A stretch of DNA of 15,738 bases, filler included, from an uncultured bacterium (lineage in GTDB: Bacteria > CAZSTA01), in the NCBI GenBank assembly GCA_964609495.1. It is 9 parts of 9 records of this genome, joined end to end, with 100 filler letters (N's around TTAATTAATTAA, not from the genome) between each part and the next. Parts side by side here need not be neighbours in the genome. Positions count along the whole stretch, not along the records: positions 3,828 to 5,518 come from CAZSTA010000343.1; 8 more parts are not named here. One strand, given 5' to 3'. The translations under genes and the position numbers were made by a program. This document shows, piece after piece, positions 2,904 through 14,208 of the stretch; the first letter of the stretch is position 1, and every line of letters starts with the position of its first letter. Below the pieces are notes generated by a model that saw only the letters and a program-made list of their open reading frames with translations, was not told where the DNA came from and did no database searches.

Positions 2904-3727
2904 TTAATGACCAGCAGGTGTTTCTACCTCTCGCCAGCCTGTTATATTCCACCTATTGAGAATGACCGGGAAGTTTGGAGGTGGATAGAAAGCGATGTCT
3001 GGATCCCCTAGATACTTCCTAGTGGGACGACCACTGCTGTAGCTTCCTGCACTAGTCCAAGCCCCTGCGCTTCCCCCGTTCTTGGTGATTATAGGTCCTT
3101 TAATCGCTAAGAACCATATCTTCTTATATATCCCAGTCCCAAAGTTATTGGTCGTCAGGTTGTTAACGTCTGACAACAGATCTTCCTCATTCCATCCATC
3201 CGCATTAAGTGCCTCTATAGAGCCATTTCTATCTAGATCGTATGAGCCAGTGGGGACGGTGTGAGTCCTCGGGCTCTTATCGTAACTATCATTATAATCA
3301 TTAGGCCTCCAGTTATTTTTTACCGCCATCAAGGCCGCCTCGATCCGCAACACCCTAGGGGTATACTCGTCGATATACACGTAATCCCAGGCTACCAACC
3401 CCATCTTGGTAGGGGTGCTATCGTTATTCGTTCCCATAATAGTCTCTCCAGTAATGAACATATCGTCTGAGGCGTATATAGTGACGGATTCCCCCTCAAG
3501 GTGTCCACTCACTCTAGCATCACCCTCGACAAAGATCGTTCCATTGAAATTTGATGGGATCGTATAGTTTTTGCCATCAGGGTCGGTGTAGTAAGGGTTA
3601 CCATTGTAAGTTGGTTGAGAGGGGTTAGTGACGAAATCAAAGAGGCTAAGATTTATAGTTGGATCGGGATTAGTGTTATCTATGTGCAATCCAGCAGAAT
3701 CCGCTAAAGCTCGATAGTGATCTAAGT
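2904..3727 (-). CDS. PilX/DUF4900-like pilus-associated protein, C-terminal part (5'-truncated)
   Basis: Motifs GTIFVEGDARVSG, TIYASDDMFITG, MGLVA, IEAALMA, PPPNFP and terminal WREV resemble PilX-like C-termini. Frame is open to the contig edge and lies upstream of a pilin-like gene. Confidence 0.6.
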
Positions 3728-3896
3728 NNNNNNNNNNNNNNNNNNNNNNNNNNNNNNNNNNNNNNNNNNNNTTAATTAATTAANNNNNNNNNNNNNNNNN
3801 NNNNNNNNNNNNNNNNNNNNNNNNNNNATATCCTATCCTCTTATATACTTAAATATAAGATTACAAATCAATAAGTATGTTTGTAATTATAAATAC

Positions 3897-4166
3897 TTAT
3901 TTAGGAGTGATAGGATTTCGTTCAAAAAACTCATCTATTGCTCTTCGCACCACTTCCGATTTATCAAGCTCATTGTAGAAAGCGTAGGCTCTAATATTCT
4001 GTATCTGGACAGGACGAAAATAGTAAGTCTTTCTTTTGTATTCTTGTTTTCTTGTAGACTTATCTACTTGTCCCTCAGCAGGGGATTCTTTCTCATTAGT
4101 CTTGTGGAAGAATATCTTTTTCCCCTCCTTAGGACTCTCTGGGATTTTAGCTCTTTTTTTACTCAT
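3897..4166 (-). CDS. Small ribbon-helix-helix (CopG/ParG-like) DNA-binding protein, probable ParA partner
   Basis: Basic, apparently disordered N-terminus. C-terminal KRKTYYF (strand)...IQNIRAYA...KSEVVRRAIDEFF pattern. Start overlaps the parA stop. Confidence 0.75.
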   Translation of the reverse strand: MSKKRAKIPESPKEGKKIFFHKTNEKESPAEGQVDKSTRKQEYKRKTYYFRPVQIQNIRAYAFYNELDKSEVVRRAIDEFFERNPITPK

Positions 4167-4923
4167 TGTTGATCACCTTAGCTAGCTGGCGATAAGCTTC
4201 TGCACCTTCACTATCGCTAGCGTATTTTAAAATTGATTCTTTAGCTACAGGAGTCTCCTTAAATCTTACGGTCTCTTTTATTACCATATCGAAAACTCTA
4301 ATATTTCTCTCAAATTCTGCTCTGGTTCTTTGAAGCACTTCTCTGGAATGAAGTGTTCTCTTATCATAACGAGTGGGTAGTATGCCTAAAATTTTCAAGT
4401 TAGGATTGACCTCTTCTCTTATCCCCTCAATTATATCTAATAGCAAACTTATTCCCACCATAGCGTAATATTCGCAGGAGAGGGGTATTAAAACACTATC
4501 TGCTGCTGAGAGAGCATTTACGGTAAGTAATCCTAAAGCCGGAGGACAATCGATTAGGATATAATCATAATTTTGTTTTATGGGCACTAAAGCATTTTTC
4601 AATCTATCTTCTCTATGATATTTGTTCATCAACTGGAGTTGAGCCGCAGCTAGGTCGATGTTAGAAGGAACAATATCTATCCCATCTTCCAGATTATATA
4701 TGATTTCTCCTATATCGATTTTGCCCATTAACACTTGGTAGATAGTTTGTTTAAGGTTATATACTTCAGGGACTCCAACACCAATACTCAAGCTTGCTTG
4801 AGGATCTATGTCAACTAATAGGACTTTCTTTCCTAGTTCGTTTAATGCCGCTCCTAAGCACCAACAAGTGGTTGTTTTTCCAACACCCCCTTTTTGGTTT
4901 GCAATGGCAATAGTTCTAGTCAT
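4159..4923 (-). CDS. parA: ParA/Soj family partition ATPase
   Basis: Deviant Walker A NQKGGVGKTT, LVDIDPQAS, YDYILIDCPP and ALSAAD motifs; 254 aa. Confidence 0.95.
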   Translation of the reverse strand: MTRTIAIANQKGGVGKTTTCWCLGAALNELGKKVLLVDIDPQASLSIGVGVPEVYNLKQTIYQVLMGKIDIGEIIYNLEDGIDIVPSNIDLAAAQLQLMNKYHREDRLKNALVPIKQNYDYILIDCPPALGLLTVNALSAADSVLIPLSCEYYAMVGISLLLDIIEGIREEVNPNLKILGILPTRYDKRTLHSREVLQRTRAEFERNIRVFDMVIKETVRFKETPVAKESILKYASDSEGAEAYRQLAKVINNE

Positions 4924-4953
4924 AATGTCCTCTTATGGATATAAAGATAATAT

Positions 4954-4994
4954 TACTTGAATACAAGTATACCACCAAAGAGATAAGAAGTCAA
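4954..4994 (-). promoter_or_regulatory. parA promoter with overlapping palindromic operator
   Basis: Minus strand TTGACT (4994-4989), 17 bp, TG-G-TATACT (4971-4966, extended -10). Inverted repeat TACTTG-aata-CAAGTA at 4954-4969. Confidence 0.7.
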
Positions 4995-5080
4995 GGGGGT
5001 AAAGGAGAAAAATTTTCTATAATAGCAGGCCATCATCTTCCTGTTAAAATAGCAGAAGTAGTAATGGAAGCTTACTAAAT

Positions 5081-5254
5081 ATGGAGATTATGCCAGATCA
5101 TATTCATCTTTTTGTCTCAGCACCACCTTATATAGCACCTACGGAAATGGTTAAAACTATTAAAAGTATAAGTGCAACAGAAGTGTTTCGGAGATTCAAG
5201 AATCTTAAAGCAAGGGGATTCTGGGGATCAGGATTATGGTCAAAAGGATATTAT
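5081..5254 (+). pseudogene. tnpA: IS200/IS605 Y1 transposase fragment, truncated at both ends
   Basis: HUH motif MPDHIHLFV, then IKSISA and LWSKGYY. Lacks the N-terminal region and the C-terminal catalytic YxxxQ helix; the frame runs into the RNA element and stops at 5290. Confidence 0.9.
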
Positions 5255-5510
5255 GTCAATGACCCACGACTGAAGGTCGTGGGCTTGTAGGGGAAACTGC
5301 AAGCCTGATTGACCAGCCTAAGTCCTGTTGGACTACGTTAGCTAGATCAAGACACCATAGGATGCTCCTCCAGTTCTATGCTCTGTCGCTAATAGTTAAA
5401 AGTTCTGAGGTCAGGAACGGTGCTATTAGCCTAGTAAGTCCAGCTAACATTGGCGAGGAGGGATAACCGAGAGGTTACGTTACCAGCCCCGTAAGGGGCT
5501 CCGCAAGGAG
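5255..5510 (+). ncRNA. HEARO-like / omegaRNA scaffold of an IscB/IsrB-family (RRXRR/PLMP) IS200/IS605 element
   Basis: Characteristic GTCAAnnACCC...GGGCTTG...TTGACCAGCCTAAG...CTACGTT...GACACC...GGATGC...CCAG...CTCTGTCG...AACATTGGCGAGG motif order. Multiple stems, a CTCCTC(5365-70)/GAGGAG(5455-60) long-range pairing, and GNRA-capped 3' hairpins. Confidence 0.85.
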
Positions 5511-5518
5511 AAAGAGAT
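5255..5518 (+). mobile_element. One end of an IscB-type IS200/IS605 element; nuclease ORF lost at the contig break
   Basis: Subterminal hairpin CCCACGAC-tgaag-GTCGTGGG (5263-5283). AGGAG RBS (5506-5510) followed by AT at the last two bases of the contig, a probable ATG. Confidence 0.7.
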
Positions 5519-5618
5519 NNNNNNNNNNNNNNNNNNNNNNNNNNNNNNNNNNNNNNNNNNNNTTAATTAATTAANNNNNNNNNNNNNNNNNNNNNNNNNN
5601 NNNNNNNNNNNNNNNNNN

Positions 5619-7297: not shown

Positions 7298-7399
7298 NNN
7301 NNNNNNNNNNNNNNNNNNNNNNNNNNNNNNNNNNNNNNNNNTTAATTAATTAANNNNNNNNNNNNNNNNNNNNNNNNNNNNNNNNNNNNNNNNNNNNGA

Positions 7400-9062: not shown

Positions 9063-9162
9063 NNNNNNNNNNNNNNNNNNNNNNNNNNNNNNNNNNNNNN
9101 NNNNNNTTAATTAATTAANNNNNNNNNNNNNNNNNNNNNNNNNNNNNNNNNNNNNNNNNNNN

Positions 9163-10795: not shown

Positions 10796-10895
10796 NNNNN
10801 NNNNNNNNNNNNNNNNNNNNNNNNNNNNNNNNNNNNNNNTTAATTAATTAANNNNNNNNNNNNNNNNNNNNNNNNNNNNNNNNNNNNNNNNNNNN

Positions 10896-12472: not shown

Positions 12473-12604
12473 NNNNNNNNNNNNNNNNNNNNNNNNNNNN
12501 NNNNNNNNNNNNNNNNTTAATTAATTAANNNNNNNNNNNNNNNNNNNNNNNNNNNNNNNNNNNNNNNNNNNNGCTTCTATATGCATCCTAAAAGTTTGAT
12601 TCCC

Positions 12605-14108: not shown

Positions 14109-14208
14109 NNNNNNNNNNNNNNNNNNNNNNNNNNNNNNNNNNNNNNNNNNNNTTAATTAATTAANNNNNNNNNNNNNNNNNNNNNNNNNNNNNNNNNNNN
14201 NNNNNNNN

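Follow-up and report, generated by a model that had tools for sequence, protein, structure and literature searches.

The 3' end of one contig from an uncultured bacterium carries a stretch of DNA that a first-pass annotation had read as an unannotated HEARO/omegaRNA scaffold of an IscB-type RNA-guided system (5255-5518), and this locus raises the question of whether such a scaffold is really there, which nuclease gene it accompanies and what kind of element carries both. The window, that is, the whole stretch of DNA that was analysed, spans 15,738 bases and is made up of nine contigs of ~1.7 kb and eight identical 100-base linkers (N44-TTAATTAATTAA-N44). Since these contigs were joined artificially, genes lying across a linker are unlinked and any neighbourhood argument reaching over one is void. 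The scaffold sits at the 3' end of the contig occupying 3828-5518, which is followed from 5519 on by a linker and then by an unrelated contig. A scan of the whole window against Rfam returned a single match, HEARO (RF02033), on the plus strand at 5255-5467, with a score of 157.3 bits versus a gathering threshold of 83, an E-value of 6.5e-34 and coverage of model positions 1-211 out of 211. The identity proposed for 5255-5518 is thus borne out by a significant covariance-model match over the full model. It is considered very likely that this stretch is the omegaRNA gene leading a ~1.58-kb non-autonomous element of the IS200/IS605 superfamily (ISC), working according to the guided-cutting model that is set out below.

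The fold of the scaffold is in agreement with this identity. Every pairing that had been listed for it proved correct in both string and coordinate (Table 1), and the nested helices among them coincide with those in the consensus structure of Rfam HEARO. For the 284-nt stretch 5235-5518, the folding energy is -102.8 kcal/mol versus a mean of -81.4 for its shuffles (z = -4.14), a value that 0 of 200 shuffles reach. No open reading frame runs across 5291-5518 on either strand.

Table 1. Coordinates of the omegaRNA locus and of the features around it (window positions, unless the public contig L002 described in the text is named)
Feature	Position	Strand	Basis or remark
Artificial linkers	1835-1934, 3728-3827, 5519-5618, 7298-7397, 9063-9162, 10796-10895, 12473-12572, 14109-14208		
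ParA-type ATPase, then small ORF	4159-4923	-	
IS200-type Y1 transposase (tnpA) internal fragment, truncated at both ends	5081-5254	+	Pfam Y1_Tnp
Predicted omegaRNA guide, ~16 nt inside the dead tnpA fragment	5239-5254	+	family architecture
Core omegaRNA scaffold, full-length Rfam HEARO (RF02033)	5255-5467	+	covariance-model match; also mobile-element end
Helix GTCAAT / ATTGAC	5255-60 / 5308-13	+	string check
Helix CCCACGAC...GTCGTGGG (first hairpin, CCCACGAC-TGAAG-GTCGTGGG)	5263-83	+	string check
Helix GGCTTGTAG...CTGCAAGCC	5282-5305	+	string check
Helix AGTCC...GGACT	5321-34	+	string check
Helix GTTAGCT / AGCTAAC	5337-43 / 5442-48	+	string check
Helix CATAGGA...TTCTATG	5356-80	+	string check
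Helix GCTAATAG / CTATTAGC	5388-95 / 5423-30	+	string check
Strings CTCCTC / GAGGAG (earlier pseudoknot register)	5365-70 / 5455-60	+	strings present
Pseudoknot 5' strand, loop UCCUCC of hairpin 5356-5380	5366-5371	+	covariation
Pseudoknot 3' strand, GGAGGG	5457-5462	+	covariation
GNRA hairpin 1, AACC-GAGA-GGTT	5464-5477 (string from 5465)	+	string check; beyond Rfam model
GNRA hairpin 2, GCCCC-GTAA-GGGGC	5486-5499	+	string check; beyond Rfam model
GNRA hairpin 3, CTCC-GCAA-GGAG	5499-5510	+	string check; beyond Rfam model
Shine-Dalgarno AGGAG (5506-5510) and 8-nt spacer	5506-5518	+	L001 reads ...GAGAT, then ATGGTATTC...; the ATG falls in the N linker
TnpB ORF, 382 aa	L002 2652-3800	same strand	after tRNA-Asn; 2.5 kb from the IscB element
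tRNA-Asn	L002 3991-4065	same strand	~200 nt downstream of the second HEARO
Second, diverged HEARO, 113 bits	L002 4265-4484	-	0.8 kb from the IscB element

The gene that the scaffold accompanies lies beyond the end of the contig. Two public metagenome contigs were found with a 28-base pattern taken from the 3' hairpins: L001 (3,634 bp), with 100% identity to all 1,691 bases of window 3828-5518, and L002 (10,287 bp), with 99.94% identity and a single base different. Both may stem from the same or sister samples and are therefore not independent of the window contig. An exact 36-nt pattern from the 3' end gave 0 matches in genome contigs, and no second copy was found within the window at up to three mismatches. 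The stretch was found in 24 listed runs, none of them an RNA run, a list that says nothing on expression. Past window-equivalent position 5518, L001 and L002 continue (...AAAGAGAT, then ATGGTATTC...) into an open reading frame of 440 codons (L001 1865-3187), whose ATG (L001 1865-1867) is equivalent to window 5519-5521. An iscB or isrB reading frame had been expected from about 5517 on the missing sequence; the frame is present and encodes an IscB with an HNH domain, its start being shifted to 5519. Likewise, the contig does end where it had been said to end (the N linker covers 5519-5618), while the final AT (5517-5518), as L001 reveals, is not the beginning of the ATG.

The protein encoded on L001 and L002 combines RRXRR and HNH domains. 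PF14239 (RRXRR) matches residues 2-180 with 228.8 bits over profile positions 1-174 of 174, the motif 'KKPLMP' (PLMP region) is found at residues 9-14, and PF01844 (HNH) matches residues 199-242 with 54.8 bits. An HNH domain set into a split RuvC domain is what distinguishes IscB from IsrB, and since HNH is present here, the ORF is assigned to IscB. Its best relatives in the PDB are TbaIscB (E = 6.3e-53), HfmIscB and OgeuIscB (7UTN/7XHT, E = 1.1e-30), and the alignment to the solved IscBs extends over residues 109-313. Residues D59, E158, H213, H305 and D308 do not vary among the 11 relatives aligned, and their counterparts in the OgeuIscB chains lie in DPG, E, HxVP and HYxDA; we take them to be catalytic, in RuvC (D, E, H/D) and in HNH (H). 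A mutant of GstIscB in D58/H209/H210 is mentioned by Meers et al. (bioRxiv 10.1101/2023.03.14.532601). The exact 440-aa protein is present in a public protein collection, where it has no name, and by its sequence it is an intact-looking IscB.

The recovery of this gene bears directly on whether the scaffold is still part of a working system or an orphan, decaying HEARO relic, with iscB absent or broken in the window's own organism and nothing being guided. The window itself is without iscB, orphan scaffolds do exist (e.g., the second HEARO of L002, with 113 bits) and many gene wrecks lie nearby, among them a tnpA fragment and a 51-aa gene tail to the right; however, the matching 1,691-nt sequence of the sister contigs runs into an uninterrupted 440-aa IscB with all catalytic residues conserved, Logan contigs of four runs extend 134-779 nt beyond 5518, and the HEARO score of the window scaffold is as high as that of the best relatives beside intact genes. 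On this balance, a relic is very unlikely.

Comparison with the family further supports the pairing of scaffold and gene. A scan of genome contigs yielded 64 loci encoding IscB relatives, the nearest of which are 67-68% identical and come from Peptococcales, Clostridia and Paludibacter MAGs, others being found in Methanosarcinales, Nitrospirota, cyanobacteria and further groups. When 20 of the 64 were scanned with Rfam, a HEARO was detected directly upstream of iscB on the same strand in 19, and the single locus with no match had only 136 nt of upstream sequence. The distance from the HEARO end to the ORF start is 29-84 nt in those 19 loci and 51 nt here (L001/L002), so that the gap is typical of relatives. 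The window scaffold is identical to none of the relatives scanned. The locus is an ordinary instance of the thoroughly described IscB-omegaRNA system, to which it adds only a fresh member.

The availability of relatives also allowed the pseudoknot to be placed by covariation. The alignment comprised 17 omegaRNAs from HEARO base 1 to the ATG: that of the window, 15 from related loci and, from L002, the second HEARO. The 5'-truncated L007 and three loci carrying long insertions were left out. Pairing of 5366-5371 with 5457-5462 is kept in 98.0% of 101 cells, and in 4 of the 6 pairs both partners have changed (10 cells); 0 of 500 shuffles reach this level, and all slid controls of this register remain at or below 76% paired. 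The window itself contributes one of these double changes, C5367/G5461 in place of the majority U/A pair. The register given previously, 5365-5370 with 5455-5460, is 91.1% paired and has 0 of 6 pairs changed on both sides, which 390 of 500 shuffles reach. Therefore, the pseudoknot that had been predicted is real, but in a different register, with a one-base shift of the 5' strand and a two-base shift of the 3' strand. Its counterpart in the cryo-EM structure of OgeuIscB is the 'nexus pseudoknot stem', described there together with terminal hairpins 1 and 2 (PMC9640706).

Downstream of the Rfam model, the three GNRA hairpins (GAGA, GTAA and GCAA) that had been noticed are present as strings and kept in many relatives; RF02033 does not include downstream structural elements, according to a statement in Meers et al. 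(bioRxiv 10.1101/2023.03.14.532601). Across the same 17 sequences, both partners have changed in 9 of the 10 pairs of terminal hairpins 1 and 2, and hairpin 3 (CUCC-GNRA-GGAG) varies on one side only. Taking all 13 pairs of the terminal hairpins together, 87.2% of cells are paired, compared with 73.6% for shuffles, of which 0 of 500 attain the observed value. Hairpin 3 pairs the ribosome-binding GGAG of iscB (5507-5510), an arrangement that could tie translation of the nuclease to folding or processing of the omegaRNA 3' end.

Several lines of evidence place the edge of a mobile element at the first base of the scaffold. Logan contigs of four marsh metagenome runs were aligned to the contig at 3828-5518. 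Contig depth is flat to 5252 and rises from 5253 on (X1: from 15.1 to 23-43.5). A variant contig with 6-8 differences spans 5296-5409/5424, and two contigs carrying unrelated upstream sequence join the window sequence at 5255 (X3) and 5253 (X4). The rise in depth and the divergent upstream joins imply that the scaffold is part of a repeat with its edge at HEARO base 1, and the element boundary is at base 5255. Several copies thus reside in differing flanks, which is compatible both with one genome and with several organisms of the metagenome. Repetition of the element in the sample is the most likely cause of the assembly break inside it. In 19 of 20 scaffolds the sequence starts with GTCA after unrelated flanks, and inspection by eye of the 30 nt upstream of HEARO base 1 in the 20 scaffolds revealed no common motif. 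Where copies were compared (12 locus pairs, most from one genome), similarity starts at GTCA in L029/L032 and one base earlier in L027/L030.

The opposite end of the element could be traced on L001. A near-copy of the first hairpin lies at 3146-3169 of this contig (22 of 24 bases alike), within the last iscB codons, and a GTGA (3184-3187) comes 14 nt after it, the TGA of this motif (3185-3187) being the iscB stop. A far-end copy of the hairpin near the iscB stop is found in 7 of 16 related loci at an alignment score of at least 27 and, more weakly, in 4 more; no convincing copy was found in the other 5 of 16. All 11 loci that have one show RTGA or RTGG within 30 nt after it. Among the pairwise comparisons, similarity ends right after RTGA in three (L027/L030, L022/L030 and L018/L031) and after ATGAAAAAAG in L029/L032; the remaining pairs are uninformative, as they show no difference over their whole length, are interrupted by the end of a locus or belong to a subfamily whose termini differ. 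The GTCA start, the hairpins at both ends and the far-end motif of RTGA type match the traits published for ISC transposons, a group with a specific 4-5-bp target motif and no target duplication; Kapitonov et al. describe their 5'-GTCA termini, their targets (GT|RA and N|ATGA) and the subterminal hairpins to which Y1 transposase binds (PMC4810608). HEARO is placed at the transposon right end, in TnpA convention, by Meers et al. (bioRxiv 10.1101/2023.03.14.532601). The element is consequently given as ~1.58 kb, from L001 1601 to ~3183, with ends that are ambiguous by 2-4 nt (N|GTGA versus GT|GA). The iscB stop codon falls within the GTGA target/TAM motif, at or just outside the transposon end, and the insertion site may supply it. 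This is not a general arrangement, as the ORFs of relatives end anywhere from 21 nt after to 148 nt before the end of the hairpin copy.

By analogy with these transposons, the first hairpin (5263-5283), as DNA, is probably a subterminal hairpin recognised by Y1 transposase. Its repetition at the far end, as described for TnpA-binding subterminal hairpins (PMC4810608), and the multi-copy state of the element could be taken to mean that the whole structure matters mainly as DNA transposon-end hairpins for Y1 transposase, the RNA fold being incidental. Such a reading is even less probable than a relic: only the first ~30 nt recur at the far end, whereas the remaining ~230 nt show covariation of RNA type, including the pseudoknot, that would be meaningless for the recognition of ssDNA hairpins, and RNA of this family has been seen bound to IscB by cryo-EM (PMC9640706). 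Both roles are compatible, and an omegaRNA gene leading an ISC element, which is the preferred explanation, includes the two of them. Attribution of the scaffold to an IsrB nickase or to a CRISPR-linked Cas9d/IscB instead of a transposon-borne IscB, prompted by the HEARO-like scaffolds that reportedly also accompany IsrB and some Cas9d systems (PMC9755519, PMC9581776) and by an IsrB match of the ORF in the PDB (E = 2.6e-18), is close to negligible in view of the HNH domain, the 440-aa length, the IscBs that are its best solved relatives, a self-comparison of the 10.3-kb L002 in which no repeat array appeared, and the termini and target motif, which are those of ISC transposons.

At the left edge of the element, the ORF at 5081-5290 matches Pfam Y1_Tnp (E = 9.1e-18) over profile positions 46-104 of 121 only. 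Homologs of this tnpA fragment, which exist at full length in public data, have 133-135 aa; the fragment aligns to them, with identity up to 85%, as far as residue 111 (...GLWSKGYY). The full-length proteins then carry a tail of 22-23 aa with a conserved YI(D/E)xQ motif that is absent from the fragment, and the IscB element in the window sits exactly where this tail would begin. The N-terminal third is missing or scrambled and the upstream frames are broken. The tnpA fragment is thus dead, and it lies outside the IscB element, which truncates it at the 3' side; no active Y1 transposase was found, the only transposase sequence adjacent to the element being this dead fragment. The possibility that tnpA is a regular part of the element was rejected, as none of 64 other IscB loci (0/64) matches the fragment in its flanks, which is in line with the ~1.5% association with tnpA given by Meers et al. 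(bioRxiv 10.1101/2023.03.14.532601). The fragment and the omegaRNA share the same orientation, and this fits the preference for co-directional insertion with an upstream gene stated in the same work, a single case proving nothing.

On the other side of the element, the right flank was considered as a candidate for the missing tnpA tail and discarded, since its alignment to the tails of 9 homologs (22-23 aa) gave trivial scores of 12-17. It consists of a 51-codon in-frame tail of an unrelated gene (L001 3184-3339) that starts exactly at GTGA and gives a weak match to an AbiEi_4-like winged-helix (HTH) domain (E = 0.037, below the Pfam cut-off). Since the right flank is not the tnpA tail, the flanks come from different genes and not from one split target, and this mismatch indicates recombination between copies or a later deletion. 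The present guide may, as a result, lack a matching 'empty site'.

Regarding the guide itself, the architecture of the family predicts that it comprises the ~16 nt immediately upstream of the scaffold, in keeping with the ~17-nt guides located 5' of the scaffold in OgeuIscB (PMC9640706). The predicted guide (5239-5254) matches the tnpA codons ...SKGYY, and homologs continue with V-G (GTN GGN), which could offer a GTGG or GTGA target of ISC type. A speculative reading of this configuration would have the IscB element home into intact tnpA genes of the IS200 family that it needs for its own mobility, and its RNP cut them. If true, this would represent a parasite-of-a-parasite loop, an improbable scenario. 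Within the same region, a GTCAA is found in the flank at 5239-5243, 16 nt upstream of the GTCAA of the scaffold (5255-5259), and in the minimum-free-energy fold 5308-5314 pairs not with the first strand of the scaffold but with a GGUCAAA that starts at 5237 in the guide region. This flanking GTCAA may be due to chance (~3% expectation) or be the trace of an insertion site.

In the model that best accommodates the locus, iscB is the only protein gene of the element, starting just beyond the contig end, and transcription would proceed from the upstream flank into the scaffold, by analogy with characterised relatives. A promoter scan of 4850-5518 gave no plus-strand site downstream of 4926, only 9/12 matches at 4898-4926, and no terminator-like site was detected in this interval; both outcomes are uninformative. 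The ~16 nt of flank would serve as guide, IscB would bind the scaffold, and the resulting IscB-omegaRNA complex would cut guide-matched DNA followed by a target motif of GTGA type. The motif would be the GTGA, on the strand considered here, that flanks the far end of the element and contains the iscB stop. The cut is expected to fall on the 'empty' site once a Y1 transposase provided in trans has excised the element, and recombination would then restore it, as proposed in the model of Meers et al. (bioRxiv 10.1101/2023.03.14.532601).

Most of these features have counterparts in systems already described. Like the HEARO RNA of OgeuIscB (PDB 7UTN and 7XHT; PMC9640706), the RNA predicted here matches the full model, keeps the order of helices and the pseudoknot from a loop to the 3' part, carries terminal hairpins after a linker and lies directly upstream of iscB on the same strand; it differs in having three terminal hairpins, compared with the two named in that structural account, the third of which pairs the iscB Shine-Dalgarno. 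The element resembles the ISC transposons (PMC4810608) and ISGst of GstIscB (bioRxiv 10.1101/2023.03.14.532601) in being short and non-autonomous, with IscB only and no tnpA of its own, and in its 5'-GTCA, subterminal hairpins at both ends, far-end motif of RTGA type and copies in several flanks. What sets it apart is the dead tnpA fragment beside it, which places the predicted guide within a transposase gene, and the origin of its flanks from two genes. The target motif would be GTGA(A) here versus the TTCAT (ATGAA in reverse complement) reported for GstIscB (bioRxiv 10.1101/2023.03.14.532601). A likeness also exists with the TnpB-omegaRNA elements of IS605/IS607, which also combine a transposon nuclease with a guide RNA overlapping the transposon end; however, the guide RNA of TnpB is at or after the 3' end of its gene and has an unrelated structure, as described by Meers et al. 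(bioRxiv 10.1101/2023.03.14.532601), and the protein in the present case is an IscB (RuvC plus HNH). Only two points are mildly unusual, namely, a guide that is a piece of a transposase gene and the mismatched flanks.

The known working of IscB-omegaRNA systems is unchanged by this locus, and its value resides mainly in correct annotation. A family that has already been mined for genome editing gains one more compact (440 aa), intact-looking IscB from salt-marsh sediment, together with the cognate omegaRNA, and the locus illustrates that a scaffold at a contig end can be completed from public contigs. The anatomy at base level (guide, scaffold start, pseudoknot, hairpins and GTGA motif) could allow direct testing of this orthologue.

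In the wider neighbourhood, the relatives of the ParA-type ATPase are at most 47% identical and are spread over several phyla; on a neighbouring, unlinked contig of the window, an ArgRS has relatives that are only 32-35% identical, in DPANN archaea. L002 adds to the surroundings of the element a Phage_rep_O-like protein, an AbiEii toxin, a serine recombinase, TnpB, the second HEARO and tRNA-Asn, and the region looks plasmid-like or otherwise mobile. The second HEARO is an orphan, with no iscB ORF after it, and keeps the pseudoknot pairs with compensatory changes. Directly after TnpB, an HTH_17/coiled-coil ORF of 217 aa overlaps by 17 nt an ORF of 159 aa with a resolvase N-terminal domain (L002 1510-2626, minus strand), a pair that may represent a frameshifted serine recombinase of IS607 type. 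Two direct repeats of 71 nt, 84.5% identical, lie just past the small ORF that follows the ParA-type gene (L002 8249-8319, window-equivalent ~3846-3916, and L002 8385-8454), and a plasmid-like replicon could use such repeats as a partition site or in the manner of iterons.
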